DNA of 64,000 nucleotides, taken from a virus. Lineage: Duplodnaviria > Heunggongvirae > Uroviricota > Caudoviricetes. The translations under genes were made by a program, and so were the position numbers. Shown here piece after piece: positions 14,094-63,264 of this stretch (the stretch's first letter is position 1; the number at the start of each line of letters is the position of its first letter). Below the pieces are notes generated by a model. It was given only the letters and a program-made list of their open reading frames with translations, searched no databases and was not told where the DNA came from. The stretch lies in IMG/VR virus record IMGVR_UViG_3300037487_000968, positions 77,280-141,279 of that record; one strand, 5' to 3'.

Positions 14094-14149
14094 AACTAAC
14101 TCCTTTGTGTGTTGCGATGTGTTTATTATAGCGTAAAGGAACTGTGCTG

Positions 14150-14302
14150 TCAACTGTTTTTAATGTAAAGTTGATAGTCCTCTGTGGAGATGTAGGGACC
14201 AATGAAGCTACCCGCGAGGTTGTACCATGTGAGTGTTACTCTCACATTCAGCATAACTTGCTTATGCTCTGCGGGTGTGAGGAGGATTTGATTTGCTTCC
14301 AT
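14150..14302 (-). CDS. Leaderless 50-aa hypothetical protein
   Basis: TTGACA-17-TATACT-5nt-ATG; its TGA lies inside the next TTGACA. Confidence 0.55.
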   Translation of the reverse strand: MEANQILLTPAEHKQVMLNVRVTLTWYNLAGSFIGPYISTEDYQLYIKNS

Positions 14303-14342
14303 ACTGTAGTATAATACAGTTGGAAGCAGTTGTCAACTGTTA

Positions 14343-14759
14343 TTACCTGACCATGCAGCCAGTAAATACATAAGTCTCGACATAACGCCCTGACTGGTCC
14401 TGATAGTAACTGCGAGAGTAAGTTGCGTCTGTGCCTTGCGGGCAGACAGGCTGCTGCTGTGGGGGTGTTGCGGGCACTACAACGACTGTAGCTGGCTCGC
14501 TAGGGCGTGTCGCACCGTAGACTATTGCCCCAGTGATTAGTGCTGGCACGAACCAACCTAAGCCTGGGCCGCCTCTGTAGCCGCCGTTGTCATGTCTGTA
14601 GTTAGCGGCAGGCCAGTGTCCTGGGCCGCCTCTGTAGCCGCCGTTGTCATGTCTGTAGTTAGCGGCAGGCCAGTGTCCTGGGCGGTACTGCTGATTGTGC
14701 TGAGCGTGTGCGCTTACTAGGGCAAGGCCTAGTATAATTGCTGTTAGAAACTTTTTCAT
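14343..14759 (-). CDS. Secreted Gly/Pro-rich protein with a duplicated 19-aa repeat
   Basis: Signal peptide MKKFLTAIILGLALVSAHA; PGHWPAANYRHDNGGYRGG x2; TM-like segment. Confidence 0.75.
   Translation of the reverse strand: MKKFLTAIILGLALVSAHAQHNQQYRPGHWPAANYRHDNGGYRGGPGHWPAANYRHDNGGYRGGPGLGWFVPALITGAIVYGATRPSEPATVVVVPATPPQQQPVCPQGTDATYSRSYYQDQSGRYVETYVFTGCMVR
14563..14682. repeat. 57-bp intragenic tandem repeat (2 copies plus partial)
   Basis: Identical units starting at 14563 and 14620. Confidence 0.9.
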
Positions 14760-14818
14760 TTGGTACTCCTGTGTGCTATGTATTTATTATAACAGAAAGA
14801 AGAGCTGCTGTCAAGTAG

Positions 14819-14986
14819 TTACAATGCAAAAGTAACTACCTCGTCACTGGGCAGTTTAATGTCTGCAGTTGCCTGCAAGAGCATAGACTTGTAGCGGTAC
14901 ATAAACACTTTGTTGCTGTTTGCCTCTGCAAGCGGAACAAAGACGCCATTAACTAAGTAGAGGCTGTTGCGTTTTAGTGTGTACAT
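14819..14986 (-). CDS. Hypothetical protein (55 aa, MYTLKRNS)
   Basis: Manual ORF after cassette leader. Confidence 0.55.
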   Translation of the reverse strand: MYTLKRNSLYLVNGVFVPLAEANSNKVFMYRYKSMLLQATADIKLPSDEVVTFAL

Positions 14987-15241
14987 GCTTGTTCCTTTGT
15001 GCTATGTGTTTATTATAGCACAAAGTGAAACTAAACGCAAGCTTTATTTACATTGTTACATCTTGTTACATCTTAGCAGCCGCGCATAGGCAGTGTCAGG
15101 TCTTAAGTTTGTGCATGAGGCTTTGTGCCGCCCATCATCTATTACGCAGAACCTCGGGATCTTAAGTATACCTTGTTTAGGTAAAACGCATAATTGCGAG
15201 ACTTTAGCAATTGTGCTGATCTCTTTGGCATTTGTTTAGAA

Positions 15242-15488
15242 CCTCGGAGTTATGCATTTTAACCTTAACTGACCTGCAGTAGGACTGCGAGGCTCTATGT
15301 AAAAAGACTTGACTTGGCAGGCGATTTTTTGTATAATAAGGCATAGGAGGGAGAGCTCTGACCTCAAAACTTTTGGCCTCGGAAAAAGTTTGGCACTAAG
15401 CTTAGATTGTGTAGAGGCTTTGCACGCTAATGCCTATGTCTTTGCTGAGCCTCGGAGTTATGCATTTTAACCTTAACTGACCTGCAGT
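15242..15488. repeat. 39-bp perfect direct repeat (15242-15280, 15450-15488)
   Basis: cctcggagttatgcattttaaccttaactgacctgcagt x2. Confidence 0.9.
15309..15360 (+). promoter_or_regulatory. Orphan sigma70 promoter, no downstream ORF
   Basis: TTGACT-17-TATAAT then GGAGGGAGAGCTCTGAC. Confidence 0.65.
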
Positions 15489-15561
15489 GGGTTTGCGAGG
15501 CTTTGCTGTTAATGTCTTTTAAGATCTGTTTTATAAGACGTTTTGCACGCAGCCTCGGATG

Positions 15562-15756
15562 TTTGTGTTTGATCAGTGCACAGAATCTACTAAGTGCGAG
15601 GTTCTGGCATTTTAGGGCTTGTAAGTTGTTGATTTATAAGGCTTTTTTTAACTAAAACAAATAAGTTTTTGTTTTTGTAGATTCTTAAAATTTAGTCTTT
15701 TACTGATCTCTAAGAGCCTCGGAGTTTATAGATTCTGTGCACTGATCAAACACAAA
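15562..15756. repeat. 28-bp perfect inverted repeat (15562-15589 / 15729-15756)
   Basis: tttgtgtttgatcagtgcacagaatcta and its reverse complement, each flanked by GCCTCG. Confidence 0.9.
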
Positions 15757-15779
15757 AACGCGAGGCACAGCAAAAGTTA

Positions 15780-15845
15780 TTGACAAGACCTGCGATCTGC
15801 CTTATAATTTTTACATAGCACCATTTGGAGGGGAAGCTCTGACTT
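15780..15845 (+). promoter_or_regulatory. Second orphan sigma70 promoter
   Basis: TTGACA-17-TATAAT then GGAGGGGAAGCTCTGAC, similar to the 15309 transcript start. Confidence 0.65.
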
Positions 15846-16105
15846 GTTCCCAAAAATCGTCTCGGCCGGCACGCGCTTGCACAAGAGCAATGTGTGCGAG
15901 ACTGCACGCAAACATCTTAAAGACAGGCGGCTAACAGATTCTGTTATTGCTAGAGCCTCGGGTAGGCAAGTGCAGGTTGATAAAACCTAAACCGAGGCTC
16001 TGCTTAGGTCTGTGTTTGATCTATAGATCTTAGACGACAATTAAGACGTAGTCTCGGGCTTTAGCACGCAACTACCTTTAGTGTGCGAGAGTTTGTGGCC
16101 ACAAT

Positions 16106-16128
16106 AAAAGGGGCCTAAGCCCCTTTTT
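16106..16128. terminator. Bidirectional intrinsic terminator
   Basis: AAAAGGGGC-CTAA-GCCCCTTTTT. Confidence 0.8.
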
Positions 16129-16142
16129 GCCCCTGCCGGGCC

Positions 16143-19135
16143 CTAGTCGTTGATGATGAGCAGCCCGTGCCCCGCGAGTGCAGGGTTGATGCTAAGGCTG
16201 TTGCCCGTCGGGGCATAGCGCCAGCCCATGATGTCTTCCCCTGAGATATCTTTGTCGGCGTGCGTAAAGACAAAGGCGTAGCCGTCGACAGTGACGTATT
16301 GCCCAGGGCTACTGATCCTCAGGTCGCTCGCTTCAGCAACATAGGTTTTAGTTGCCAGGTTGTAGCTAAACTGCGATTCTTTGAAGTTCATTTGCTGCGC
16401 TCCTTGTTGCGATATGCTATTATAGCGCAACTGGAGCGATGTGTCAATAGTTAAAACTCACCCTCGTACGGATCAGGAGACGCCTTGAGCCCAGGTGCGA
16501 GACACTCACATGCCTGCTCGCACACCCGCAGCAGTCGTGCTCATGTCTGCAATTGCTACCGCCCAGTGTGTCTCGCAGCGCCTGGATCAGCTGCTGCATG
16601 TTGACACCAGAGGGCGCCCTGGCGTACTGCACAAACGCCCCACCGTCGTCGTAGTCTTTAGGCGCCTCGGTTTGCCTTGCTGGTGTCATATTGACTGAGC
16701 CCAGGTACACATCCTTGTCCAGGTAACGCCAGCCATCGGCATAACCATGCGTTAGGCGTTTGAATGCGTAGACCTTTTCCATTGTTGACTCCTTGTTGCG
16801 ATGTATGTATTATAACGCAATTGGAAGTCTTTGTCAAGCTTCTGTAAGCTGTTTTAGGCTGCGCTTTGCCAGGAGGATGTTCTCCATAAAAGCAGAGCGG
16901 AGCAGGCTAGCTGCCTCGTTGCGAGTATGGCCGTTGTTTAGGAGTTGCTTCAAGAAGGGAGTGCCCAGGATGGCAACCTCTGCTTGCATCAGCGGCGTAG
17001 GAGGTTTTCCTTTGAGGTGCGCTACCGCTGTGCTAAACTGCATCAGGATGAAAGCGTCTGTGTCTTGTAAGTGTTGTGCCATTTGCTGCTCCTATGTTGC
17101 TATGTATTTATTATAGCACCATAGGAAGCTGCTGTCAATAGCTATAGGAATATTGTTGTACTTCAAAAACTTTGTCGAGCTTTTTTTGCACGTCTGGCTT
17201 AGTGACGCTGTAAGTCTCTGATGCGTTAGAGTGCTTAACGAGCGTTGCAACTGCGGCATCGATGCTTTGCTGCGTAAGCATTGACACAGGATTGAGTGTC
17301 TCGTAGTACGTTGCTGTTGCTTGCACAAGTTTGCTCTCGAAGCCTGCTAGTAAGATGTACTGCACTGCTGCCTGAGAGCCTTGCAATTTACGTGCAATAA
17401 TGCGTGTAAACAAAGTACCGTTTTTCATATTACTCCTTGTTGCGATGTGTTTATTATACTGCTAAGGAACGGTACTGTCAACAACTATTTTCATCTTTGC
17501 GTGTCAAACCTGTCTCGGTTTTTCCCGCAAGAACCTGCCGCAGGAAGGCGAGACAGGCACTACACTTAAAAATGTAAACCTAAATCCTCGCATAGACTTC
17601 TGAGTCTGACCGGGCAGTCTATCAGAGATCCTAGCACTGGCTCTCTATCTTGTCGCACAGGGCATTGAACTGTAGCCAGGTCAAAGGCTTGAAGTTGTTG
17701 TGTGAGCGGACATAGTGCGCTTGATAAGCATTGTAGCGTGGCATATTGACTCCCTGTAAAGATATTATCATAAGCATCTGCATTGCTGCAACGCTTATGG
17801 AAGTACCCTTCACATCGCTTTTCCATTGTTCAACCACCGGCCCCGAAATGCGATACAACTAACCGGAGAATAACAAACAATGTCTTGTTTGCTTTGCTAT
17901 GTGTTTATTATAACGTAGTTGGAGCCTGCTGTCAAGCCTGAACGTTCCAAGCCCGCGCCGTTTCAATCTTTCGCTTCAAGTTGATAGCGTCAATCGCAGC
18001 CTCTTTCAGGAGATGAAACGATTTGTCAGATACCTCGAGGTTGTCCATGTTGCGCTTCAACTCGGCGTAAACCAACTCTACCATGTTCTCGACAGTCTTG
18101 AGAGATTCGTTGTTCATGTATGTATTATAACAGGTTTGGGTATTATTGTCAAGCCAAAGCTATCATTAAATCAGCAGCCTCCGAGACTTTCATGTTGCTG
18201 TACTCGTCGCCGCATGTCTCTGCCAGTTTCAATGCCTTCGCAGGAACACGCATGCCGCACGCCTTCATAACCTTCAGTTCGGCCAGCAACTGTTTGACAA
18301 ACTCGCTCATTTAACGACTCCTTGTTGTTGAGTGTTTATTATAGCGCAATTGGAACAGTGCAGTCAAGCACTATTATGCGTAATTAACTTCCTCGCACTC
18401 GACCTTTACGTCTAGTTCCGGAAACTCTGCGAGTATTTCAGCCTTTTGTGCGTCTGCTAACGCTTGTGAGCTGTGCATGCCGCACATTTCCCACTGATTC
18501 TCGTCGTCGCCGAAGCCCAGGCCGTACACTATGTAAACTTTTTGCATTGCTGCTCCTTGTTGCGATGTATGTATTATAGCGCAAAGGAACAGTGCAGTCA
18601 AGCACTGTTACACTTAATACGCTTCTAATTCGTGTATGCAATAACGTGCGCCGAGCTGACGCAATGCAGCACGACAAGGTTCAGGCGAGATACTCCAAAA
18701 CGTGCTGTAGATCTCATCGCGTAAGTCTTGTGAGATCTCGTCTTCAAACAGTGCATAGATCTGATCAAAGCTGAGGCCTTTACAAGCATTTGCAAAGTCA
18801 CGCATACTGTGTATGTTACGTGCTACGACTGCAAGTGTTTTCTTCATACGCTACTCCTTTGTTGCTATGTGTTTATTATAGCAACAAAGAAAGCTGCTGT
18901 CAACAACTTTAGTCTACTAATAGTCGCCGTCTTCTGCTCTCTGTGCTAAAAACACAATGTCGTAGTTAGCACCCTTCGCTGCTACTAGCGTCTCTACTAG
19001 CGCACCCGCAATGTCATTGCTAACATCGTTGTCATCCTCGTACCAATCGCTGTCACTAGCATTTTCAACTGAGAACATAACATCGTCTGCTGCTTTGCGT
19101 AAAGCTGCTGCAAGTGCTTCATACTTTGCCTTCAT
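16143..19135 (-). other. Single-gene cassettes encoding hypothetical proteins: 16143-16391, 16444-16782, 16834-17082, 17135-17428, 17631-17744, 17932-18117, 18149-18310, 18374-18547, 18614-18847, 18917-19135
   Basis: Most have their own promoter and SD (17932-18117 is leaderless); starts corrected to the ATG after the leader. Confidence 0.7.
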
Positions 19136-19480
19136 ACGCTACTCCTTTGTTGCTATGTATGTATTATAGCGCAAAAGGAACTGTGTGTCAACAACTATTT
19201 AGAGCCTCGCAGGTCTTAATCTTAGACACATAAGAGCTCAAGCGAGGCTACGCCCTCCTCGGGTAAGGTTCAGAGGACCTTAGAATCTACTATGCGAGAA
19301 GGTTCAGATGTAACAAGATGTAACAGGCGAAAAAAGACTTGACAGGAACGCCCCAATCGCATACAATAACGACATGGACAGCAAACATCGCAACAAACAA
19401 AAATGCAAAAGCTTGCAAATAGTTGTTGACGAAGCTTGCATCCAGTGTTATAATATGTTTTTCAACACAAGGAGTTAGTA

Positions 19481-19984
19481 ATGGACAAAGGTATCCGCCC
19501 CGCTTGCAACGCAAAGTTCGCTGAACTGTTGCCCACACGTGCCGAAGTCGGCAACACGGCTTTCCGCAAGAACGTTATGTTCTACGTGATGGAAGAGTTC
19601 GGCATCACGCTTGCTAGTGCTGCAACGCACTACAATCACGCTTTCCAAGCTGTGAAGGCTGCTAACCCGGAACTTGTTGCAGGCTTGGGCCGTGCAGACG
19701 ACAAGAAGGGCGGCCGCAAGCCGAAGGCGACTGTTGTTGCTGAAGCTGTTGCTGTGCTGCTTGGCACGCCGGAAGGTGCTGCGCCCGAAGCTGCTACGCT
19801 GCTTTCGGAAGGCGTCAAGGAGAACACGTCGACGCTGACGGTTACAGTTAACCCGGCAGCGACGTTTACCGTCCGCAAGAAGTCCGACGGCACTGTTGTT
19901 GCCGAAGGGCTGTCGCAGGAAGCTGCTGACACGCTGGTTGCAAAGGCCAAGGCTGCAAAGAAAGCGGCACTGGAAATTGCTTAA
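19481..19984 (+). CDS. Putative DNA-binding protein, 'SAATHYN' family copy 1
   Basis: FRK.VM...GITLASAATHYN...GLGR.DDKKGGRKPK; own promoter and terminator; only credible + strand gene in the region. Confidence 0.75.
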   Translation: MDKGIRPACNAKFAELLPTRAEVGNTAFRKNVMFYVMEEFGITLASAATHYNHAFQAVKAANPELVAGLGRADDKKGGRKPKATVVAEAVAVLLGTPEGAAPEAATLLSEGVKENTSTLTVTVNPAATFTVRKKSDGTVVAEGLSQEAADTLVAKAKAAKKAALEIA

Positions 19985-19989
19985 GGGGT

Positions 19990-20014
19990 TAGGGGCTACG
20001 GCCCCTACTCTTTT
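19990..20014 (+). terminator. Intrinsic terminator
   Basis: TAGGGGC-TACG-GCCCCTA-CTCTTTT. Confidence 0.75.
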
Positions 20015-20073
20015 GGCCGCGCATAGGCAGTGTCAGGTCGTAGACCGAACCACCCGAGGATGCTACAAACGGT

Positions 20074-20207
20074 TCTCGGATAGGCAGTGTCAGACCAATA
20101 TTAGCTAGTGCGAGGAGGGGCATGGCAGGGTCTCGGATAGGCAGTGTCAGACCAATATTAGCTAGTGCGAGGAGGGGCATGGCAGGGTCTCGGATAGGCA
20201 GTGTCAG
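20074..20207. repeat. 57-bp non-coding tandem repeat (about 2.3 copies)
   Basis: Units start at 20074, 20131 and 20188 (tctcggataggcagtgtcag...). Confidence 0.9.
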
Positions 20208-20271
20208 GACGTGGGCCGTAGCTGCAAGGGTCTGCACAACTTGCATAGCTTAGTTAAAGTCAAAAGATAAG

Positions 20272-20460
20272 CTAGGTAGGACATTTTAGTTTCCTACCTA
20301 GCTTTCCTAACCACTCATCCGGTTCGTAGTGACCTTGATAGAGTTGTATATCAAACTGAATATACCCGGACCGTGCGCGAATTGTGTGTAGTGATCTAAC
20401 CCAGATCCCATCGTTGCCGGGGTCATCAGTGTGCGGCATATACATGTAGTGATCCGTCAT
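20272..20460 (-). CDS. Hypothetical protein
   Basis: GGGG SD-like sequence before ATG. Confidence 0.45.
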   Translation of the reverse strand: MTDHYMYMPHTDDPGNDGIWVRSLHTIRARSGYIQFDIQLYQGHYEPDEWLGKLGRKLKCPT

Positions 20461-20592
20461 GGTCCCCGTATGTCGGGACTTCGAAACCCGAAATTCGTTG
20501 CAAAAATTGAGACTATAGCCCCTACCGGTAACGCGGTGATCTAGCTATTGCTGCGTGAGCCTGATTCTCGCAAATCAGGAGTCTCTAAACTT

Positions 20593-20678
20593 TGGTGGAG
20601 ATGGATGGATTTGAACCACCGTGCTTTTTAGGGGCCAGATTTACAGTCTGGTGCAATCAACCGCTCTGCCACATCTCC
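20593..20678 (-). tRNA. tRNA-Tyr (GTA)
   Basis: GGAGATG acceptor, CCAGA-CTGTAAA-TCTGG anticodon arm, long variable arm, GGTTCAAATCC, encoded CCA. Confidence 0.93.
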
Positions 20679-20682
20679 AAAA

Positions 20683-20788
20683 TCATATCTAAACGCACTC
20701 GCATCTCCCTTTGGGGGCGCGTGTTCACCAACTTTTTATCCTGCGTCCAGGAAGTTGTGTGCCCATTTACACCAGCGTTTAGATATGA
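20683..20788 (-). ncRNA. Candidate cloverleaf-like structured RNA closed by a 14-bp stem
   Basis: TCATATCTAAACGC / GCGTTTAGATATGA enclosing three hairpins. Confidence 0.5.
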
Positions 20789-20911
20789 CCCCATGCGTCG
20801 GGACTTCTTACAGACAGGATATACAATACTAATCTCGTAACTAGCGCAGACATTACTTATGTAGTTGCTAGATTAAGATTAGCCTTTTTTTGGCTAATTT
20901 AAGCAGCTACT

Positions 20912-23129
20912 TTACTGATGTACAGTCCACTCATCGGACTCAAGCATATAGCTGTACGCTACGTCTTCGGGCAACTCGCTGCCATCTTGCATCACGCCTG
21001 TTGACACAATCTCTTCTGCTATCGTGCGGGCAGAGTCTTCACTGTCTGCTTCCACTTCGATGCTCTGAACCCAGACTTCCTTAACTCGTACAGTAAACTT
21101 AGCCATATGTTACTCCTATGTGTTGCTTGCTGTGCATGTATTATAGCGTCTATAGGAGCAAAGGTCTATAGACCTCTAGGTGCTTAGGCGGGAAATCTGT
21201 GCCAGAACCTGTCGCAAATTCCAAAATTAAAAAACCAAATCTGGTCGCGAAAGTTATTTTGGAAACCTAGGGTCGTAATTTCGGCCTGAACACTCACACG
21301 CATAGGTATCTAACATCTCGACAGCACTGGCCTCCGCTTTAGTGTTCCTCGGATCCTTGGCCCACTCCTTTGTCTTCTTGTCGAGACTTTTATTCATTGT
21401 GTAAGCACACCAAGCAACGAACAATGCCAGCATTGCTTGACCCCACATAGCAGTAGCGACACCGATGACAGCAAGCACAAGAAAGACACCAATTATTGTA
21501 TTCATTTTATATCAGAGTGGAAAGAAGTACCTTTAAGTGCTGAAGCAAGCAATATAATTAATGCACAGCCTAGCACAAAGACATTAACAACAGGGATTAC
21601 AATAGCAAGCAACAGTGTAGAGACAAACCTAACTGTAAGCGGGTTATGCTCTTCAACTACCTCTACCCAGCAAACAAGACCTGCCAACACAGTCGCGAGA
21701 ATCGCTGCTACAATATACACGATCCAGAAAGTGCTCATGTCTCTAACCGATTAAGGAACTTGTTGAGTGCATCAACAGAGACGCTGCCATAGATCTTTGC
21801 GTAGTTGATGCTATCCAGTGAGTACTCAACCGCTGCGGCAATAGCTGTAGCCTCGTCGCGGGGAACACCCGCAGACATCATGTTGTCTACGAGTGCTGTT
21901 ATTCTGGGATCAGTTTGTGTGCTCATAGCGTATTATACTATCTATGAGCACACTTGTCTACCTTATGCCCGCAAAGCATTCACACGCACATAAGGGCCGC
22001 CGATGCTAACACGCCCGGGCAGATAAGCGTCAGTGTCGGTAACACGAACTTGATTGTTGAAACCTTTGGCACGCAGATTCCTGTTAGCCCGCTCAGCAAT
22101 CTCGCCGGCGTAGGTTGTTTGGTATGTCACAACACGCATAGGTTTGTCGGGACGGGACCAATTCACCGGGTCTGTCCATGTGCGACCTTTGCGGCACTTT
22201 AGTTCGTCAAACGCTGCATTGATTGCTGCACGAACTTCCAATGTGTTGCCTGCTTTCATTTGCTGTCCTTTGTTTGTTGCGATGTATGTATTATAACGCA
22301 GTAGGAACCAGTTGTCAAGCAATAATTGCCAGCCTCTCAGGGAACTTCATTGGCTGCTTGCTGTCGTTGAGGTACACCTTGTCGCCATCGAGCTTTGTAA
22401 CGACCTGCACCTCGATGTAAGCACTGAGGCGTGCAAAGGCAAAGGCACGAGCAACATTCTGCCCTACCTTGAACTTCTTTCCAAGTACATCCTTAGCCAT
22501 TTTGATCTCCTTCAATAATTTCTTTCATTGCCTTACGCTCAGCAACTTCAGCTGCCAACTCCAGGTCAGTGTAGTCATTATAACCACGGAACCCGAACTC
22601 AAGGTTCCATGCAACAACGGTCCAGTCGTTGTCCAACATATCCGCTTTGATGTACTCGATGTCCCCATCAACCAGCTGTTTGATGATTGCTTCACGATCC
22701 ATGTTACGCTCCTTATTAAAAGCTGTCAAAGACCCACACACCGTCTTCCTTGCGTGTAGGCAGGTCGCCACAGAATTCCCAGTTGCCTGCACCTTCCACC
22801 TTCAAATTGGAGTAGGCCATGCCGTCTTCAATTTTGGTAATCACACCGTATTCGTAATTGACTTCTTCGTCGCCCACAGTATCAGCGCAGCAGCGGTCGC
22901 CTACCTGTGGGGTGTCGCCCGCTTCGTTGCCTTCTTCACCCTCGGGTTCTGTGTTGTCCATCAACGTGCAGAGCAGGTTGTTGTAATCACCCGCCATGCA
23001 CTTGAAGATCACATCCGAGATCTCATCTGCTGTCCAGCCCTGCTTACGCGCAGCAGTCTTGAATGCACCCATAAGGGAAAACGCATTGCCGTCAATGCCT
23101 ACGAGCGTCAGTTTAACTTTGTTTGCCAT
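20912..23129 (-). other. Hypothetical CDSs: 20912-21106, 21254-21505 (TM), 21502-21738 (TM), 21735-21926, 21963-22259, 22315-22515, 22493-22702, 22716-23129
   Basis: Cassette promoters, SDs and coupling; starts corrected. Confidence 0.7.
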
Positions 23130-23191
23130 ACAGTCCTTTGTTGCTATGAGTGTATTATAGCAGGATGTTTCCACCCTGTCTATATATTTGT

Positions 23192-24034: not shown

Positions 24035-24092
24035 TTTGTGTGACCTTTGTGTGTTGCGATGTATGTATTATAAGGGAGATGGAACCGATTGT

Positions 24093-50063: not shown

Positions 50064-50075
50064 CGTAATCCTTGG

Positions 50076-51837: not shown

Positions 51838-51884
51838 AGTCCAATATTTATCATACTGGAATGAAATATACAATACACACTTCA

Positions 51885-52162: not shown

Positions 52163-52246
52163 CACAAGATTTTGCCGCAGGATTTGGATTTGAATTTCCA
52201 AATCTGATTTGGAAATCTGAGATGGAATTTTGAAAAGGCTTTTTGA

Positions 52247-52558: not shown

Positions 52559-52733
52559 TTACCTAATGCTTCTTGGCGTTCTTCTTCAATCTCTTTTAAT
52601 GCTTGCTTCAATGTCTTGCCAGTGGTGCCCACGAACTGTTCACCACTCTTCCAGTGAGCATACATCCGCACACCTTCTGCGATACCATTGTAATATTCGT
52701 GGATTCTTCCTGCATCATCTTTCATAGCAATCC

Positions 52734-55410
52734 TTATATAGATCTTGATTGAACATCATTCCACGCCGGGTCTAATAAAGGCTTAAATATAAGGTATTCT
52801 GTATCATGTAAATCGATGAGGGCATCTATTGCTAATACAGCATCAAAAGGAAATCCTTGCCGATTAGGTCGGTCTGACATAGTTAGACTTCCTAAGAAGT
52901 CTCGGCATTCTTTACACCCCCAATACAGATTTAGTTTTTTCTGTATATGGGGGAACCTGCCTAAGCGATCGATTAAAACTGTAGCGTTTTCCATTACTTT
53001 ATTTATCGAGCTCGATTATCCATACATGAGTTTGTGTGCTTTCTGTCGAAGCTGTTCAATCTCATGTGCTGCCTCTTCCAATAGGTCTGCTATGCGATCC
53101 GGTTTGTTTTCCTGAACACTCTTCCTACCTGGAATCTGCCGGCGGATGCGGGCACGTTCCCTCAGACGATAAACAAGGTCTTGTTCGTTCATACATACAC
53201 TCCGGATTCATATCCATTATTACCCTTGATAACATCTTCGAGTGTATAGGTAGTACCAAATAATTCAACTTCTTCTGGCCAGTTATCGATCTCGGATTTG
53301 CCTCCGTATGCTTGCAGTCGTCCGTTGGCCAATCGCTGTCCGGCAAGATCAAATCCTGCGATAAATGGTTTTAGCTGTTCGTTCATTCTTCAACTCCTAG
53401 TAGCTTATCAGCTACGGCGTCATCGTCCACTCTATTTGCGATGCTCCTTGCTTCTTGCTCAGTATTGGCCACCACTTCCATAATGTAATCATCGCCCCAG
53501 GCATCTGTCATTTCAAATGTGAATGTCTTCATTATTTTTCTTTAGTTCGTGGCGAATTCATAATTGTTACAAAGAATTTATTATAGGCAACTTCGAACCC
53601 ACGCAAATAATCTTCGGCTTCTACCTCTTCACCAAGTTGGTCGTAAGGATTATCATATATACATCCTATCAGACCATCCGCATACCCTTGTCCATATGGG
53701 GTTTTCATTCCTGCATTACCAGTTGCCATTATGCAGTTACCTCATTCAGTCGTTCCCGCGCCGCACCGGCAAAGGCTGAAATGTTACCGCATTTATCTTC
53801 CCAACGCAAGAGATTGCGGCAAGTGTATCCAATATCTTTACGATCCCAACATACAGCTTCCTGATTCAATTCCCCGTTAAGGAATACCCGGCAATGAAAC
53901 TGGCCGTTGATAGTGCGAACCGTAACTTCGTGCTCGCACAAACCTTGCAGCACCTTCTGCATTAGGATGAGTTCTGTGTATCGTTGTTTCATGATTCGAA
54001 TCTTTCATAGCGACTGAGATTAGCATCAGCACCGACTCGCAACACTTCCAATCTCTCGAGTGCTTCGAGGATGTATTGATCGAAATGTTTCGTGTGGTAT
54101 AGTTTCTGTAGTTCTGCACCCGCGGTATTTACATCGGCCAGCAGTTTACGAACAATACGATGTTCTTCCCGTGCATCAGATGCATTACTCATGGTTCAAG
54201 GCTCCTATTATCGATGATAGAATATGCTGCACCACGCTCTGCTCCAGCACGATGTTGTTTAGACCAAGTATAGTCTTCACCATCGGGTGTCTTACCATCT
54301 TTAACTTCATCCACACCGTTTTGACCGACTTGATCTACATTTTCACAAACCATTGTTATGAACTTAAATCCTTGTTCCCTTAGCGAAGCGGCACCGCGTA
54401 ACGCATAATCAAGTTTGTGAAAGTCGATGAATTTGGCCTCGCCATCTGCATCAGTCCAATAAACCTTATAAATTGTTTCTTTCATATTATGCGCTTATAA
54501 ATCCTATATCTCTTAATAGGCTCTGATTAACCTTCGGCCAACCAACAACTTGATAGAATATATTTAGTGCTGTGGCTTCGTCTTCAAAATCTCGTTCCAT
54601 ACCAAAATCGTCATTACCCCAAACACATACACGCCAATCACCATTATTGGGCGGATTTGGGCCTGTCTGCGTAAATGATACACATACCAGTTTAGATACG
54701 CGGGCATCGCCTTCTACTCGGTAGTTGCCATACCAGTCGTCATCTGTTTCTTTATATACATTGATTCTCATGATATCTTCATCATTTCGTTATTCTGGAT
54801 ATGTAACTCTTCACGAGTCATTTTAGCCAGTGTTGTTAATTCTGGAAATACAAACGTCTTAAAAACGGCAATGCTTACTACTGAGTCACTTGCGTCTAAT
54901 GTACGCAGCAATATGCCTAAATTCGGCATATTTGCCTTCACAAATATGTCTTGTAGTATCGTATCTCCCGACCAAGATTCTCCTATTAGTAATCGAACAG
55001 AAAGTTTATAATCATACACCAATTGATTCTTCAACTTTCTCACCCTTAAGAACCAATACGGTTTCTTCCTCTTCGGCAAATATTAGCCTTTTCGATTCTA
55101 ACACTGCCCTGCGGTCTGCTGCAGACATCTTTAGCCAAGCTTCAACCACCTCATATGACCCCCAGCATACATTGCGTGGCAGTTCATTAAGAATCCATAC
55201 AGCCATATATTTTAAGGCCTGCATAGTATTTGATGGGTGTGAATGTGTTATGGCACCCAGACAGTCATTAGCCAACACAGAAGTAAAGAAGCCGCCGGGA
55301 CTATAACCATGAACAAGATAGTTATAGATAGTATCGGCGTATTCTTTAGGTACGTGATAACTATCGAAACTCTTATAAAATCTATTTTTGCTGTATGCAG
55401 TTAATTTCAT
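52734..55410 (-). other. Hypothetical CDSs: 52734-52994, 53016-53192, 53189-53386, 53532-53729, 53729-53992, 53989-54192, 54189-54485, 54487-54771, 54768-55079 (start uncertain), 55012-55410
   Basis: ATGA/TAATG-coupled train of small ORFs. Confidence 0.65.
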
Positions 55411-55448
55411 AATGTATTATACACTAATACGCAAACAAAATCAATAGA

Positions 55449-56204
55449 TTATTTAGTTGTAAAATTACAACAACCTTCGTTGGGATGGCATATGAACACA
55501 TCTATTCCATTCTTCTTGGCGTTATACATTGCACAATCAGCCTTGGTCATTAATGTCTTTACATCATTACCGGATTCTGGATAATCAACCTTGCCAATAC
55601 TAAGGCCAATGCTCAATGATTGCCCATTGATATCAATTGGTTCCTTTATCTTTTCTATCATTTGCTGGATTACTGTTTCATGTGAAAATACATTAGCATA
55701 AGGTAGGAGAATAACAAATTCATCGCCACCTAATCGAATTACCATATCATTGGCACCTACTGATTCTACAATTCGTTTTCCCACAACTCTTAATACTTCA
55801 TCGCCAGCATCGTGCCCATATGTATCGTTTACTTCTTTGAATTTGCATAAGTCAATTAATAGTAATTGGAATTTTGTTTTCTTTTTAATCAGTTTATTAA
55901 TTCTATCAGCGAATGCTGCTCGATTATATAATCCGGTTAAGGGATCAAAAGTTGCCTTATGTGTTATCTTACCAACTACTGCGAAATGATAAAGTATTGG
56001 AACAACTACAATTGTGGCAATAAAAAAATCAATAACACAATATAGATAAAATGGTAATAGTAATGTGTGAGAATATGCGTGTAATAGATACAGAAGTGAT
56101 ACCGCTCCATACATAGCAAAACTTATAACGAAGAAAGTCAGTAACGTGACATTCTTAAATAAAGGGGATCTAATGGAGATATAATTCATATTCGTATTTA
56201 TCAC
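55449..56204 (-). CDS. Membrane-anchored diguanylate cyclase (GGDEF)
   Basis: Two TM helices, DPLTGLYNR, D...FK.VND.YGH..GD, RLGGDEF, AD.AMY.AK. Confidence 0.9.
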   Translation of the reverse strand: MINTNMNYISIRSPLFKNVTLLTFFVISFAMYGAVSLLYLLHAYSHTLLLPFYLYCVIDFFIATIVVVPILYHFAVVGKITHKATFDPLTGLYNRAAFADRINKLIKKKTKFQLLLIDLCKFKEVNDTYGHDAGDEVLRVVGKRIVESVGANDMVIRLGGDEFVILLPYANVFSHETVIQQMIEKIKEPIDINGQSLSIGLSIGKVDYPESGNDVKTLMTKADCAMYNAKKNGIDVFICHPNEGCCNFTTK

Positions 56205-57822
56205 TATTTCTGTTGTTGTTTTAATAACAGTCCATTTAACTCAGCATCAAACTCATAAAACTCGTTTGATTCGGGATCGAATACAAATTGTTTTGAAGGA
56301 TATAACCAATACTCGTTATCCTTCATCAATTCATCGGCTTTGGCAAGCCATGCAAGCATAGCCTTCTCGGCATCTGATTGTTCGAGTGAAGGAGATGACG
56401 TAGTCACTACACACCAAAAAGAAGTTTAATTTGGTTCATAAAAACTTCAATACCCATCTCTCTACCAGCATTGTATTCTTCTGATCCGTTAACCACCGTT
56501 TGCGATTGGGTCAACCTACCTTGCGCTAAACATTCCCGAACGATAAGCTCGGCGAACTTTTCTAAATCAATAAAATCTTCCATATCCTGTTGTGCCTGCT
56601 TATCCCAAAAAGATCGTTCAGCAAGTCGTTTCAATCGGTTATTCATTCTTCAACTCCAAATCGTTCTTTAATCATTCGTTCACAATTATCAGCAACCGAT
56701 TTGAATCGTCGGGCTTCTTCACCTGTGTACATTGCTTCAATGACACTGCCGACACCTCGGCATTGGCTAATGCAGTCCAACATAATCAACTCGGCGAACT
56801 TTTCCTTGGAGGATAATAAGGATTTCTCGGGTTTGTTCGTTCATAATGGTGAGTAGTGGTCTGGTGCTATTTGTGCAACATAATAGTTTTCGTCAATGAA
56901 TCCGTATTTAATACGGTGTTCTTCCGCATCAGATGCACTTCCGTACGGACCAAAGATGATTCTATTTGGTTCGGCATTCATTCTTGGTTCGCGTTCAAAT
57001 ACAGCGAACAGGGCCGGCCGTGGGTATCGTTCATTCATTTTCGGCATTTGCCTCATCACGCATTGCCCAGGCTTCATCAAACCCTTCCCAATTATCTACA
57101 CCGGCACCTTCAAGATAACTGAGCCACTCAGAATCTTCGCACAGTCGGTCATATTCTGCTTTTGTAATGGTAATCATTTCTTCGTTCATTTTCTTGTCAG
57201 TTCCTTTAGTGAATAAAAAGCAATCACCAGGTTGAACATCGGCACCATGGAAACCACGAGGCTAATCAACAACTCCGGCATAGTAATATATCCTTGCCTT
57301 TTTCGTATGCTGTAATAGATACAAGCAAACGACACCGGCCACATCAGTAAAAAAAGTGTTCCCATTATTTAACTCCAAAATGTTCTAAGATTGCGTCTTT
57401 GAGGTATATGCCCCTGACACCTACAGGATCTTGCCAATAAGTGCCATACGCAACATCGGCACATTCCCGGATGATAAGTTCAGCCAATGCCTGATGTTCG
57501 TGATCCAATACCATCCCCTGATCCGAAGTCCAGAGTAAGGCGTTATCTAACTTCGCCTTGTACACAAGTTCTCTGAGTGCCTTGTTCATTTTACCCCGAA
57601 GTGTTCTTTAATAGTAGCCAATGCTAAGTCAGTACCGCCCCATGTTTTATCTTTAACAATAGACATGCATTCCAGTACAATAAGTTCGGCGAACTTTTCC
57701 ACGTCAAGTGTACGAGAGTCTATATCACCAGTGTCAGACCAAGAGCCTGCTGCATGTGAAGTATACCCACCGCATACAGTTGCTCCAGCTTGTTCGGCAA
57801 ATTCTTTAATTCGTTCGTTCAT
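56204..57822 (-). other. Train of small CDSs: 56204-56407, 56407-56646, 56841-57038, 57031-57189, 57365-57589, 57586-57822
   Basis: Several are FAELI-family paralogues; MNE/MNx starts overlap upstream stops. Confidence 0.65.
56643..56843 (-). pseudogene. Frameshifted or chimeric FAELI-family gene
   Basis: ATG frame MNEQTREILIILQG stops early; KEKFAELIMLDC...ERFGVEE continues in another frame with no start. Confidence 0.45.
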
Positions 57823-57824
57823 AC

Positions 57825-58298
57825 TTAACCTGTAATTTCGGTATAACTATTCTTGAAGATCTTTTCATCGACTACCCACACATCAGTGTGGTCTTCACGA
57901 TTGCGAACAATATAATCGCCCGCCTTGTATCTTTGAATATTTTTATACTCGCCGAATGTTTCGCCCCAGTTGCCTTGCAAGAATCCTGTGAACGACGTTT
58001 GTGCAAATTCTACACTGTTCTCCTGCTTAGGATTACATACCATCCAACCTTCGGGATCAATGGCATCAACTGTATATTTCGATAAAAGCTTTTTAGCCGA
58101 TTGTTGCCATGCATCGTTGCTTTCACCGATACAGAACATTGCATCAGCATGGACAGGTTCTTTAGCCTCCAATGTGTCAACTAAGAACTTGGACATTACG
58201 GTTCGGTCAACCAACAGTGTCACCATTGGCTTAGCCCGCAGGCCTTTCGTCTTTTTCGCTACACCAAAATTCAGTGTGTTTGCATCAAGTAAAATCAT
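57825..58298 (-). CDS. PGDYG-like protein
   Basis: KAGDYIVRN...VWVVDEKIFKNSY. Confidence 0.5.
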   Translation of the reverse strand: MILLDANTLNFGVAKKTKGLRAKPMVTLLVDRTVMSKFLVDTLEAKEPVHADAMFCIGESNDAWQQSAKKLLSKYTVDAIDPEGWMVCNPKQENSVEFAQTSFTGFLQGNWGETFGEYKNIQRYKAGDYIVRNREDHTDVWVVDEKIFKNSYTEITG

Positions 58299-59500
58299 GG
58301 TTCAATCTCCTCTGTCATATCAGCTTCTTCCAGCTGATACCATTCACCATCGACAATCTTTAATTTGATATAATTGCCTACCATTCCGCCACGCACATAA
58401 TCACGGCCGCCATCGATATAGGTGGACCCATCTGTTGATGTGCGATAGTCGTGTCGATAGCGACTATAGATAACTTCGCCATCGCGGGCGATTACACCAT
58501 CGATGATACCTTCCACAGCACTTGCGCCGCTTGTGATGTAAAGTGTGCCGCCCTGGATAATCAATGCGAAGTAGTTGGAGTAACCTTCGACCGGCGGCGT
58601 TTCCTGGTAATACACATCGCCGCAGGAATCTCCAGTCCACTGGCCATCCCGTGTCTTCATAGCAAGTTGTCCAACCCACTTGGCGTTGTACTTGGCTTCA
58701 ACCTTCTCAATAATACATTGAGCATCAGCACGTCCAGTATTTACAATAATCTTTTTCATTTCATTGCCCTTATGCGATTAATTACTTCATTGGCTTCGGC
58801 AAGATCGCTGTATTCAACAGCGAGCTCATCTATTTCTTCCTTCTTCTCATACCACTCGACATATGGTTGAGTCCATTGGCGAAATGCTTCATATTTGTCT
58901 TTACTATTTGGATCCATAGCGTTCTCCTGTTACTGCTATTTTACAGCAGACCTTTTAAGATAGCAATAGATAATGCTTGTTCTGCTTCTTGTATTGTATC
59001 GTATCGCCATGCAAATATCCACCAACTACCTGTTTGACCGCGGCAGCCGAAGAGATTGTATAATTTATCAATCCATTCGGGATTGATATCTATGCCTTTA
59101 GTAAAGATATTAACTATGAATTCGTTGTTCCTACCTTTTATACCACGCCAGGATTGAATACTATAATTCCTGCCTTTTTTTATTGTTTTTGTGCGGCGTC
59201 TCACAGAATTTCCAATACCTTCAAACTATTGGCTGTGTACCAAATACCGCCCTGACTTTCTGGACGAATGTGTTTTGTGCAGCCTTTAACTTCAACCTTG
59301 CACCAAACACGGCCTTTTTTAGACAAGTGTGGAGCAAGTGGTTCAGCGCAACAGTGCCAGCCTGGGCGAACCTTATAGCCTTTGGTCGGATGGAATTCCG
59401 CCATATACTTCTTTCCAATCTCCACACGCAGGCGAGCATTGATAAAGAGTGGGCCTAACGAACCATCCTTGCGTTGTTTGAATAGCTTATATGCAATCAT
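58295..59500 (-). other. Hypothetical CDSs 58295-58759, 58941-59204, 59201-59500
   Basis: ORF track; motifs SRYRHDY..DGG.DY and RPGWHC. Confidence 0.68.
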
Positions 59501-59554
59501 GTGTGCCTATGTTCTGTACATTATAACAAGATAGGCAAACAGTGTCAATGGATT

Positions 59555-59989
59555 TTATCCCCACATATCAGGATACATATCGGATAAATCGACACCCACT
59601 AATACCCTGGGAGAGGTGCCTTTGTTGCAGACATCCTGATGAGTTTTTAAGTTATGACAACATGCACACAAAGTCTGCAAATTATCGGGGTCGTCATTAT
59701 CATGATTTCCATCTATATGATCAACTGTTAATTCTTTTGGATGAGAAATTGTAGTTGTGCATATCTTACCGAGCCTACCATCTATATTTTCACAATAGTT
59801 CTTTTTATGAGCTGTATAGCCTCTGTTTTTCATATGTGGGTATTTGTTACTATGACAATAATAGCAGGCAGGTTTTCCATCTATATTTCTCCACATCGGA
59901 GAACCATCTACTCTATAATTTAATAAGGTAGCTGGTAAATCGCATACCTGCCCGTTTGATAGTGTTTGTTCGCAGTTTGGTCTTGTCAT
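59555..59989 (-). CDS. HNH endonuclease-domain protein with zinc-binding Cys
   Basis: LTVDHIDGNHDNDDPDNLQTLCACCH. Confidence 0.8.
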   Translation of the reverse strand: MTRPNCEQTLSNGQVCDLPATLLNYRVDGSPMWRNIDGKPACYYCHSNKYPHMKNRGYTAHKKNYCENIDGRLGKICTTTISHPKELTVDHIDGNHDNDDPDNLQTLCACCHNLKTHQDVCNKGTSPRVLVGVDLSDMYPDMWG

Positions 59990-60032
59990 ATGCTAATGTA
60001 GCATCGATATACAAAATTGTCAAGTCATAAGA

Positions 60033-60052
60033 ATAGGGACCGTAGTCCCTAT
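60033..60052 (-). terminator. Hairpin terminator
   Basis: ATAGGGAC-TACG-GTCCCTAT-TCTT. Confidence 0.65.
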
Positions 60053-60074
60053 ATCTTAACTTGCATTGGCCTGC

Positions 60075-60494
60075 TTAGGCAGTTGCGTCAGCAGCAACCG
60101 GTTCTGCAATAGCAGCAACCACGTCAGCAGCAGGTGCTTCAACCTTCGGGCTATTCTTGCTGCCAGCTGGGCGGCCGCGCTTGCCAGTAGATGCAACCTT
60201 GACCTTTTTAGGGTCACGGCCGAGCGTAACGGTGCCAGTAGCTTCAGCATCCTTTTTGGCCGCATTGTACATCGTTGCAGCAGATGCAGTGGACACGCCC
60301 AGATCGGTTTGGATACCAGTCAATACCGCTGCCCGGAATTCCTTGTTCGAAGCGAACAGGCCTTGGGTGCGTTCAACCATCTTGGCTTGGAAGATGGCCA
60401 GTGCAAGGGACTTCTTGGAAGGTGCCTTCGGAACTGCCGGCGTGGCGGGTGCAGTGGCAACAGTGGTTTCAGTAGCAGTAGCGTTCTTAGTCAT
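60075..60494 (-). CDS. 'SAATHYN' family copy 4, with AT-hook-like KRGRP
   Basis: EFRAAV...GVSTASAATMYN...LGRDPKK...KRGRP. Confidence 0.72.
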   Translation of the reverse strand: MTKNATATETTVATAPATPAVPKAPSKKSLALAIFQAKMVERTQGLFASNKEFRAAVLTGIQTDLGVSTASAATMYNAAKKDAEATGTVTLGRDPKKVKVASTGKRGRPAGSKNSPKVEAPAADVVAAIAEPVAADATA

Positions 60495-60590
60495 AAAATA
60501 CTCCAGTTTGTGTGTTGTGTGTAAACAAAGACGAATGAACTATTTCCTCCGTCTTGCCGCTATTGTAAGACAATTATTGGCTGAAGTCAA

Positions 60591-61097
60591 TCATCCAGTA
60601 ATTATTACAAAGTCTGTATCATCGGTAGAGCGGACCCACCGTGAAGACTTGTGATTCTGATCGCAACCAATTGGCGAAACAAATAGCCAAGGGCCGTGTT
60701 TACCCGGTGCAAAAAGCACAACATCGGTTTCGGCCAATACCGTCCACCGATCACCATGCTCGCGCACTCGATTCTTTCCCTTTTGAGAAAGACCTTTGAG
60801 TTGAATTTGTTTACCAAGTAGTGACACTTTAATATCCTATACTGCTAATGCTTCAGGAGCATCAACTTCGTCGTCATCTTCCAGGCCGGCCACCAATGCG
60901 TCTACATCGAGTTCAGCATCGACAGCGCGGGTCTTACGATTACCATTTACGGTAGAAACAGAGACAGGGCGATACTGCCACAGCGGACACGAATTCACGC
61001 TGGTGCAGGCTTCTACTTGTTCTCTCCAAGTTCCTGGCGATTTGTGATCATAGATACACATTTTGCACATATCATTGATAGCTTTGGTGCGACTCAT
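60591..61097 (-). other. Hypothetical CDSs 60591-60827 and 60837-61097 (CKMC...C...CPLW zinc-binding)
   Basis: Promoter and SD present; second start corrected. Confidence 0.68.
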
Positions 61098-61310
61098 TTG
61101 TAACTCCTTGTTGCGATAATGTATTATATAACAGAATTTACTTCTTGTCAACTAAAATACGATATAAGGATTTTGAAAGCTTCCTTGCCCTATTTGTTCG
61201 TAGTGGCCTTGCAGGATACGCCGAAGGTCCAACCACTGCCATAACAAAAAATCTCATCTTTCGGTTGGTGCCAACACGCTTAACTAAACGTCGAGCAGTG
61301 GGATTTCTTT

Positions 61311-61682
61311 TCATTTAGCACGCCGCAATTTTTCAGCAAGGACAAGTTGCAGAATTTCGCTGGCAAGATCATCCTCACCTTGCTTTAAGGCTTCGGCACC
61401 CAATTCGCGTAAAGATTGCAACAATCGCTGGACAGAATCACCTACACTGATGCCATTGTTACGCAAGATACGAAATTGATTTTCAATCTCGTTATCGGGA
61501 TTACCATAGGATATGAAATTGGTTCTATGGATATCAAAGTGCTGCTCTCCCTGCCGTTCGGAGGCATCTTTTGCCTCTTTTAAGCCGAGCCCGGTAAGCA
61601 TCCGGATCGCTTTGATAACTTCGACACGTTGGGTCTGTGCAGCGAGCAGCCCAATACACATCGAGAATGAACCGTTACTCAT
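61311..61682 (-). CDS. Second bL12 C-terminal-domain-like protein
   Basis: RVEVIKAIRMLTGLGLKEAKDASE. Confidence 0.7.
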   Translation of the reverse strand: MSNGSFSMCIGLLAAQTQRVEVIKAIRMLTGLGLKEAKDASERQGEQHFDIHRTNFISYGNPDNEIENQFRILRNNGISVGDSVQRLLQSLRELGAEALKQGEDDLASEILQLVLAEKLRRAK

Positions 61683-63199
61683 TTAACTACGCCGAGTATG
61701 AGGAAGAACGGCCAATCCACCGCACACCACCGCAGCCAACCAAGTCCAGAAACTAAAAGCAATCTGCGGAATAAATGCGCCTACAGGAGCACCAATCATT
61801 GATGCAGCAATAAGAGTATTCACACCCCAAATAAAACACCAAGGCCCCACTAAGAGCAGAAATGCAATGAAGAGCCCAGCAAAAATCAGCTTAACTAAGT
61901 TTGACATAATTTTCCTTATTTAGATTTCAAACGAACGGGTTGATACAAGTCCCAGCCAATGATATAGACAGGAACTACAATTGTTTCACAGAGGATAATA
62001 CCCCAAATAACCGAGCTGGCACTGATTTCGTACAGCACATTTGGATCCTTCTGCGATTCCATATTAGCAATACCGTAGACATCGTAATGCTTACCTTCAA
62101 TAACTTTATCATTGCCGCAAGCAGACAACAATGCAGCGGCACCAATGATACATGCGATAAGACGTGTTTTCATTTTATTTCCTTTACCTTTACTTTGCTG
62201 ACACGATAACCCATCCTTGCTGCTAAATCCTTCAGCAAGGCAAGATTGACATCGCCCACTTGTTGTTCGCGATGCCAGTGCGTATATGCAACAGGTCGGC
62301 CACCATATCCATCCAACACAGCTAATGTCTGTGTATCGGCGTGAACTTGCTCGACAATCTGGCCATACTGAAATTCTCTGCGGCCATCGGTTGCAGAAGC
62401 CATCCAAATCTTGCGACCCAGTTCAGGATCCTTCTCCCAAACATGAACAAGATCGTTTGACAATACAACTACGGTGCGAAAGCCCATGTTAGCCAACCCT
62501 TCCTACATAGTCTGCTCTCATGTACCAATCCGGCACATAGTCTTTATCATTGAATTTGGCATTATAAGCCCGGGCATATTCTTTGGCTTCGACATCATTG
62601 TCAAAATAGATTGTTTCATCAATCTTGGAACCCCATCCACGTTCACTCTCAATAATATCTACGCGGAATGCTGTTTTAAGTTCAACCCTTGCCATATTAT
62701 TTCCTTAGTGTGTAATCGAAACGCGAATCTTTGTAACTGTATCAGTGCCGCGGAAACGATCCATTGGATCACCACCCACTTCTTCGATGACATAATTAAC
62801 CAACACCTTTTCAACAGGAACTTCGAGATCCTTTGCAATTAGCAGCTTGATATCATCTGTAGAGAATTCGTACGATGATACTTTTGATTTCAATATACCT
62901 GCCATTACCTACTCCTTGTTGCGATGTCTTTATTATAGCACCAAAGGAAGATGATGTCAACCTTTGGCAACAATGTCGTACTGGTCGAAAAATTCGGTTG
63001 CAGGGATATCTTGAGTGACAATTTTGTTCTTGCCCTGATACGAATCAGCAAAGCGAACCCGCATCCCGCCGGAATTCAAATTCAGTTGCACCACTTCAAC
63101 TTCGCGTTCCTCAGAAATTTTGAAGCTAGAAGTAGGGTCCGTGTTGTCGTAGTTTTGGTTGTAAACACGAACAGTAGCAATAACAATAGGGAGAGACAT
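61683..63199 (-). other. Hypothetical CDSs: 61683-61907 (TM), 61916-62173 (lipoprotein, LSAC), 62170-62496, 62489-62695, 62705-62905, 62957-63199
   Basis: Coupled ORFs and cassette promoters. Confidence 0.68.
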
Positions 63200-63264
63200 A
63201 TCCGTTCCTTGTTGCGATGTCTATATTATAGCACAAGATAGCGTAAGGTCAACAGGATTTACTC

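Follow-up and report, generated by a model that had tools for sequence, protein, structure and literature searches.

A recurring promoter-leader unit in the small-gene array of an uncultured giant phage: a predicted expression module within which gene exchanges also fall

The viral contig IMGVR_UViG_3300037487_000968 of the IMG/VR database contains a long array of small genes in which a promoter-like sequence with an attached leader, here called the unit, recurs about once per kb. We describe this unit within a window of 64,000 nucleotides (W; the basis of the coordinates given below) that corresponds to bases 77,280-141,279 of the 210,450-bp contig, a record with a CheckV completeness of 55 %. 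The record contains a gene for a major capsid protein of the T4 type (Pfam Gp23, E 7e-79), no close phage relative was found in GenBank by megablast of 20 kb or by tblastn of a 473-aa protein, and DNA nearly identical to that of the window is present in lake, freshwater and sediment metagenome contigs from ten studies. Taken together, these three observations identify the source as a giant, uncultured member of the T4 phage superfamily, and the region studied here is likely to be its early, hyperplastic region. The radical-SAM protein found a single weak match among GenBank phages, in the Streptomyces phage SF3.

The 16-mer ACATCGCAACAAGGAG, which forms part of the leader, occurs 23 times when up to 3 mismatches are allowed, compared with 0.47 expected from shuffled sequences; 12 are exact, and 21 of the 23 lie on the minus strand. 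A strict search for TTGAC and TATAAT 18 nt apart, with no more than one mismatch, picks out 54 minus-strand sites between 12,900 and 64,000, and an nhmmer profile derived from these 54 sites detects 64 units in the window (61 on the minus and 3 on the plus strand) and 73 in the whole 210-kb record, nearly all of which fall within genome positions 90-150 kb. A generic scan for sigma-70 promoters across 14,000-33,999 returned 67 sites, compared with 28.1 +/- 5.1 in shuffled sequences. An earlier, sequence-only reading of this DNA had estimated some 50 to 60 promoter-leader-gene cassettes, which agrees well with the 64 profile units and the roughly 51 among them in which a start codon follows the -35 hexamer at 48-68 nt, with a Shine-Dalgarno (SD) sequence of the AAGGAG type ahead of it; the others precede longer leaders or non-coding stretches.

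In an information profile that takes the first T of the -35 hexamer as its origin, the conserved stretch runs from about -9 to +48. A weak preference for A/T (0.3-0.65 bit) at positions -9 to -4 is followed by the -35 hexamer (TTGACA, or TAGACA in 10 units), a spacer of 17 nt whose 3' half is semi-conserved, TATAAT, and then A(C/A)A(C/T)ACATCGCAACAAGGAG. The leader itself is A/C-rich, about 20 nt long, and ends at its 3' side in AAGGAG, 5-8 nt ahead of the ATG. The unit is thus probably a near-consensus sigma-70 promoter with its leader, and transcription is predicted to start about 7 nt downstream of the -10 box. The connection with the preceding gene is tight: at all 13 positions listed in the sequence-only reading the upstream gene stops with the TGA of TTGAC, two more genes stop with the TAG of TAGACA, and 25 further stop codons lie at most 15 nt upstream of a -35 hexamer, which brings the total to 40 of the 64 units. 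Units without a start codon at the usual distance are found at 50076-50223, 44648-44907, 17826-17938, 40866-40961 and 21740-21963 (all minus strand); their sequence suggests that they drive either long structured leaders or non-coding RNAs.

The leader had been called near-invariant, which overstates the case, since only about a third of the units come within 3 mismatches of the typical sequence; it is better described as a family of variants, other members reading, for example, ...CGCAACACACAAAGGA... or ...ATAGCAACAAAGGAG. Some neighbouring copies are nevertheless as similar as had been claimed for the pairs 34481/35761, 50161/50461 and 18851/19141. Units 35813 and 34532 share every base from the -35 hexamer to the SD sequence, including 17/17 spacer bases, units 50516 and 50216 match between -10 and +56, and units 19191 and 18903 do so from the leader as far as the ATG. 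In the consecutive units 26921, 26582, 26367 and 26107, 16-17 of the 17 spacer bases are held in common, compared with a mean of 5.8/17 over all pairs.

The unit is by no means a peculiarity of one phage. The exact 26-mer TATAATAMAYACATCGCAACAAGGAG is present in 100 stretches of IMG/VR contigs, and these stretches contain 855 units in 878 kb. In five large IMG/VR contigs (200-380 kb), the unit is the sole sequence held in common with the window at the DNA level, and these contigs are therefore useless for synteny comparisons. The AAGGAG sequence and the CGCAACAA core are kept throughout the clade, beyond what a promoter would need, a degree of conservation that might point to a phage regulator acting on the leader, either a RegB-like nuclease cutting at GGAG or a RegA-like repressor that shuts off all early genes at once, with recombination as a side effect; RegB and RegA of phage T4 are precedents. 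However, the RegB family was unmatched in the fragment, a negative that is uninformative because control genomes were unmatched too. We consider it quite unlikely that a regulator accounts for the leader, although its existence does not conflict with the explanation that we favour below.

In its 3' half, the spacer partly matches the leader's reverse complement, so that the two form an inverted repeat that lies within the unit and spans the -10 box. The complementarity is clearest at unit 50,516, where the spacer ...CTCCTTGTTGC is opposite the leader GCAACAAGGAG. For 35 units of the leader type, the energy of the spacer-leader duplex is -9.0 kcal/mol, compared with -5.85 kcal/mol for shuffled spacers; at 49 other promoter-like sites the corresponding values are -4.6 and -4.1 kcal/mol. 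RNA folding pairs 71 % of the SD bases when the transcript reads through the unit, and 25 % when it begins at the promoter belonging to that unit. Sites resembling intrinsic terminators are not enriched in the sequence (14, compared with 16.7 +/- 4.4 in shuffles), and the cassettes are therefore not insulated from each other transcriptionally. The folding model suggests that they may instead be insulated translationally, with the spacer occluding the SD sequence in read-through RNA. A comparable arrangement is known from the T4 genes e, soc, 49 and I-TevI, in which occlusion hairpins pair the SD sequence in upstream transcripts and leave it free in those initiated within the hairpin, thereby separating early from late transcripts of a few genes. 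The array would share with these hairpins an SD sequence that is predicted to be paired in upstream RNA and free in internally started RNA, but its 5' arm is the promoter spacer itself, and it occurs in dozens of early units.

Two collinear relatives of the window were available as IMG/VR contigs, G006 (101 kb) and G007 (70 kb). A gene-by-gene map of the window against both is a mosaic in which the protein identity of neighbouring genes ranges from 30 to 100 %, genes of the window are variously nearer to G006 or to G007, and indels, replacements or swaps, and translocations are numerous. The sequence-only reading had turned on the question of whether breakpoints between relatives coincide with the unit. 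Chaining of sensitive BLAST aligned segments (HSPs) yielded 94 gaps of at least 80 nt, and 70 of the 188 event boundaries (37 %) lie within -15..+62 of a unit, while units make up 8-11 % of the bases. With flanks of at least 85 % identity, units account for 37 of 84 boundaries (44 %) and other gene junctions for 30, which leaves 17 elsewhere. The ends of high-identity HSPs cluster at unit positions +17..+23 and +42..+51, and the crossover positions derived from HSP ends, indels, chimeric units and contig joints spread from -5 to +53. A 2.2-kb block (26376-28615) is 99.2 % identical to G006, compared with 55-80 % for the neighbouring genes, which indicates a recent exchange; it ends within a gene on one side and 9 nt upstream of a -35 hexamer on the other.

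Four events illustrate how the unit takes part. Between two units, the segment W 34,891-34,511 is replaced in G006 and G007 by one unit that combines the 5' part of the upstream W unit with the downstream leader, and W 49,141-48,525 shows the same pattern with the crossover at TTGACAAGG. In the third event, G007 carries a 421-nt cassette within the unit at W 23,182, giving rise to two units that share the crossover region; the inserted gene has 98 % protein (91.5 % DNA) identity to W 26,309-26,112, located elsewhere in the window phage. In the fourth event, the cassette W 27,216-26,873 is found in G007 within the unit belonging to the homologue of W 41,491-40,976, a move of 15 kb, while G006 has the same arrangement as W. 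A five-way alignment resolves the left unit of G007 into the resident flank and -35 hexamer, followed by the spacer of the cassette's downstream unit and the leader of its upstream unit; 17/18 bases of this spacer match the cassette's downstream unit, compared with 13/18 for the resident. The right unit consists of the flank and -35 hexamer of the downstream unit, followed by the resident spacer, -10 box and leader. This three-part chimera is compatible with the pattern predicted if a circle were excised by recombination of one unit with another and then integrated via a third.

Joints of the same kind are present in contigs of four metagenome runs, one per study, that were aligned on W 14,000-33,999. 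In-register joints connect 16,429 with 18,586 (unit offsets +18 and +15), 14,130 with 15,026 (+23 and +14) and, in a contig that goes back along the window, 33,873 with 25,423 (+20 and +15). The joint 16,821/27,250 (+16 and +5) was recovered in two runs (X16 and X19) with ten identical inserted letters. In an X16 contig, the block 21,963-22,703 stands in place of gene 25,738-25,442; its joint 25443/21963 is just upstream of two -35 hexamers, while the joint 22,703/25,739, present in three runs, is at the SD/ATG edge of the leader of unit 25792. The joined unit pairs match exactly over 6-16 nt only. Two further candidates, 14127/33845 and 18883/33841, were rejected as repeat cross-matches rather than events, since their shorter side comprises 26-27 letters located in the shared core. 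A further polymorphism was seen within gene 14759-14343, where 74 nt (14616-14691) are replaced by 5 nt in three runs (net -69, in frame).

It could be argued that the units are ordinary strong early promoters with an optimised 5' untranslated region (UTR), and that the apparent recombination is an artefact of assembly or alignment. HSPs must extend into the shared core, so that ends at +17..+51 are expected even for breakpoints nearby, the units show no excess of breaks over other gene junctions, and every sequence used for comparison is a metagenome assembly. Against this stand the variable spacers, which are specific to each unit and which, rather than the core, switch partners within single units, as well as the sharing of whole spacers between neighbouring units and the recurrence of the same joints with the same inserted letters in runs of different studies. 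Moreover, the Logan assemblies use a word length of k = 31, and simple assembly chimeras are unlikely because the exact match shared by the joined units is shorter than such 31-letter words. We therefore regard an artefact as an unlikely explanation. The chimeric units, the in-register joints and the cassette that moved by 15 kb, taken together, lead us to conclude that units serve as crossover points.

On balance, the locus is probably an early expression array resembling the PeSLs of cultured T4-type phages (see below), recombined by general homologous or short-homology recombination and not by a site-specific, integron-like system. Since each unit has a near-consensus sigma-70 promoter with a leader, the host RNA polymerase would transcribe each small gene separately right after infection. 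The SD sequence would be paired in read-through RNA and free in RNA from the unit's own promoter. Because 50-60 nt of similar sequence recur about once per kb, crossovers between units would occur by general homologous or short-homology recombination, and they would yield deletions, duplications, replacements and the transposition of cassettes, probably via excised circles.

Several points weigh against this interpretation. Gene junctions that contain a unit are not broken more often than those without one (Fisher p 0.2-0.8): 19 of 30 junctions with a unit and 51 of 67 without are broken between W and G006, 33 of 41 and 45 of 51 between W and G007, and 14 of 23 and 28 of 51 between G006 and G007. 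Genes were called on one strand for this comparison, and small spurious open reading frames may inflate the presence/absence breaks at unit-free junctions. At more distant loci, the kept junctions number 3 of 27 among those with a unit and 9 of 49 among those without (p 0.52). The roughly 1.6-fold excess of boundaries at units for flanks of at least 85 % identity can be explained by the wider interval that was scored for units. The joints come from assembled contigs and not from raw reads, and IMG/VR contigs may switch strains at orthologous identical stretches, which would inflate the identity mosaic but not the ectopic events. The promoter role, the start site and the early timing are predictions from sequence matches, the signs of a circular intermediate are its footprint and the contig joints that go back along the window, and the events can be read in either direction. 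With regard to enzymes, RecA/UvsX was not found in the 55 %-complete fragment. The gp32, RegB and AsiA families were unmatched there as well, which is uninformative because control genomes also gave no match and the record is incomplete.

The comparison of junctions also shows where the sequence-only reading went too far. It had taken the unit to be both an expression module and a recombination joint; a predicted self-contained module with breakpoints inside it is borne out, but the unit is not a special joint, as unit-free junctions break equally. An apparent tendency of unit-bearing genes to travel alone (9 % compared with 47 % keeping a neighbour, counted per hit) was discarded, because a few genes with many hits dominate it and the difference is not significant per junction. 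Indels at unit-free junctions make use of short repeats, namely the SD-spacer-ATG motif GGAGTC.A..ATG and the opening codons that members of a paralogous family have in common, ATGAC(G)ATATTTGA. Units are thus one of several junction homologies in use, and not a dedicated or privileged recombination site. Since unit-free gene boundaries are equally plastic, the driver would be any short shared expression signal together with an active recombination system. Tandem small paralogues with common start codons (Met-Thr-Ile-Phe-Asp...) are present at 30300-31450 (minus strand) and at about 6300-7600 of L102 (G006); indels, swaps in order and a joint that goes back by 434 are located at their shared 5' ends.

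A dedicated shuffling system, in which the unit or its hairpin is the target of a specific, unrecognised recombinase in the manner of attC, has to be weighed against these data. In its favour are the inverted repeat of spacer and leader across the -10 box, the conservation of the unit among phages with otherwise unrelated DNA, and one footprint that fits the excision and integration of a circle. The crossover points, however, range from -5 to +53, unit-free junctions recombine equally often at simple microhomologies, and every cassette has its own promoter. Neither a tyrosine (PF00589) nor a serine (PF00239) recombinase was found in the 210-kb, 55 %-complete record, as the sequence-only reading had anticipated in noting that no integrase was evident, and five relatives, among them a record that CheckV rates 100 % complete, likewise gave no match to PF00589. 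This complete record bears short exact matches to the unit core and encodes a RecA/UvsX-like gene. A dedicated system is, in our view, highly improbable.

For the same reasons, namely the promoter on every cassette, the spread of the crossovers and the recombinase that was not found, the description of the array as integron-like is not upheld. Like an integron, the locus is a long array of small accessory genes that run in one direction, and it gains, loses and reorders them cassette by cassette; a circular cassette intermediate is plausible. Unlike an integron, the array has no detected IntI and no attC/attI sites with a fixed crossover, but recombines by homology at variable points, and its cassettes each carry a promoter instead of being promoterless under one common Pc. 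The morons of lambdoid phages, described by Juhala and Hendrix, are accessory genes with their own promoter and terminator and with control sequences that are unrelated to each other, and they are expressed from the prophage. The array resembles them in that single accessory genes with their own promoter are inserted among other genes. It differs in almost entirely lacking terminators between the cassettes and in reusing one shared unit in a genome of the lytic type.

The comparison with the PeSLs of T4-type phages, already drawn in the sequence-only reading, is the apt one in terms of promoter, SD sequence, location, breakpoints and phage superfamily. PeSLs consist of an AT-rich stretch, a terminator stem-loop, a strong sigma-70 promoter and an SD sequence, and are located in hyperplastic regions (PMC2839356, PMC4122927). 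They mediate indels, replacements and the formation of mini-circles, with mini-circle crossovers in RB49 between the -10 box and the SD/ATG (PMC2839356, PMC4122927). Descriptions of them are limited to three pairs of cultured T4-type phages, RB49/phi1, T4/PST and KVP40/nt-1 (Arbiol et al. 2010, PMC2839356; Comeau et al. 2014, PMC4122927), and we found little follow-up in the literature since 2014. PeSLs and the array have in common a repeated near-consensus sigma-70 promoter with an SD sequence between the genes of a hyperplastic T4-type region, indels, replacements and displacements between relatives whose crossovers fall within the element, a gene content made up mostly of ORFans, and general recombination as the suspected agent. 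In contrast to PeSLs, the array units have no upstream terminator stem-loop, and the stop codons of the preceding genes lie inside or next to the -35 hexamer; their inverted repeat is inside the unit, between spacer and leader and across the -10 box, and their entire 5' UTR is conserved. The density is also much higher, with 64 units in 50 kb, and the phage is an uncultured giant whose common feature with the PeSL phages is the T4 capsid family.

The array hence extends the PeSL idea to an abundant clade of uncultured giant phages, represented in at least ten freshwater and sediment studies, at a far higher density and with an architecture of its own. It adds, at the nucleotide level, a footprint compatible with the excision and integration of circles, as well as unit-to-unit joints in natural populations. 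The unit could serve as a cheap marker for early genes in the clade, among them candidate genes for host takeover or anti-defence, and it represents a compact and portable design of promoter and 5' UTR.

We tentatively raise a bolder possibility, for which we would not claim even odds: the unit might combine a promoter, a translational insulator (with the spacer as anti-SD) and a recombination handle, and might be a common currency across the clade of giant freshwater phages, such that single-gene circles re-insert into any unit, also between co-infecting phages without any other DNA similarity. If this were true, the three-in-one unit would act as a functional equivalent of an integron, based on homology and operating without a recombinase.

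Table 1. Coordinates of the array, its units and the segments affected in relatives or metagenome contigs.
Feature	Position in W	Strand	Remarks
Array of small early-type genes	12900..64000	-	61 minus-strand units; the array extends beyond the window end
Typical unit with exact leader	16789..16840	-	TGA of the upstream gene inside TTGACA; joined to unit 27255 in X16 and X19 contigs
Unit 18601	18554..18606	-	In X13 contig, in-register joint to unit 16447 (16429/18586), seven genes deleted
Four consecutive units with near-identical spacers	26060..26929	-	Flank cassettes that are absent or elsewhere in relatives
Mobile cassette (gene 27196-26927 and parts of both flanking units)	26873..27216	-	96 % identical to G007 10949-11292, there inside another unit
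"Empty" resident unit	41498..41551	-	G007 homologue split by the mobile cassette into two chimeric units
379-nt segment between units 34938 and 34532	34511..34891	-	Replaced by one chimeric unit in G006 and G007
615-nt, two-gene segment between units 49149 and 48519	48525..49141	-	One unit in relatives, crossover at the -35 hexamer
1.5-kb block of four cassettes and five units	24850..26376	-	Missing here in G006 and G007; both ends at unit edges
Three-gene block	21963..22703	-	Replaces gene 25738-25442 in X16 contig
Twin units 35813 and 34532	34485..35820	-	1.3 kb apart; identical from -35 to SD
Inverted cassette	19335..19984	+	Units 19335-19380 and 19417-19474; 167-aa gene 19481-19984
Third plus-strand unit	15773..15823	+	Profile match
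Clear hairpin and T-run terminator, among few	16100..16135	-	After gene 16391-16143; read directly from the sequence
Unit without start codon after the leader	50168..50223	-	Predicted to drive the non-coding stretch 50076-50171

With respect to the gene content of the window, 19 of 30 larger products were unmatched in Pfam; the matches among the 30 include DUF7695, AAA_16 (below threshold) and a weak match to the C92 peptidases. Individual cassettes carry a gene for a phosphoribosyltransferase-like protein (39690-40172, minus strand; E 3e-6) and one for a SprT-like protein (23192-24034, minus strand; E 2e-7), and a single tRNA-Tyr (GTA) lies within the array at 20593-20678 (minus strand). A 123-aa product encoded at 61311-61682 (minus strand) matches the C-terminal domain of ribosomal protein L7/L12 (E 1e-8), and a GGDEF diguanylate cyclase domain (E 1e-44) is encoded at 55449-56204 (minus strand) among tightly packed, unit-free genes. 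The GC content is 45-51 % across 14000-28000, with individual genes reaching 58-60 %, and 33-40 % at 1-12 kb and 50-58 kb; this compositional heterogeneity of the cassettes suggests mixed origins. On the plus strand, the segment 758-7118 (about 35 % GC) contains genes for shikimate-dehydrogenase-like, GatZ/KbaZ-like, B12-binding radical-SAM (727 aa) and carbamoyltransferase (490 aa) proteins, a cluster that, from its predicted products, looks like a pathway for the modification of a small molecule or sugar.

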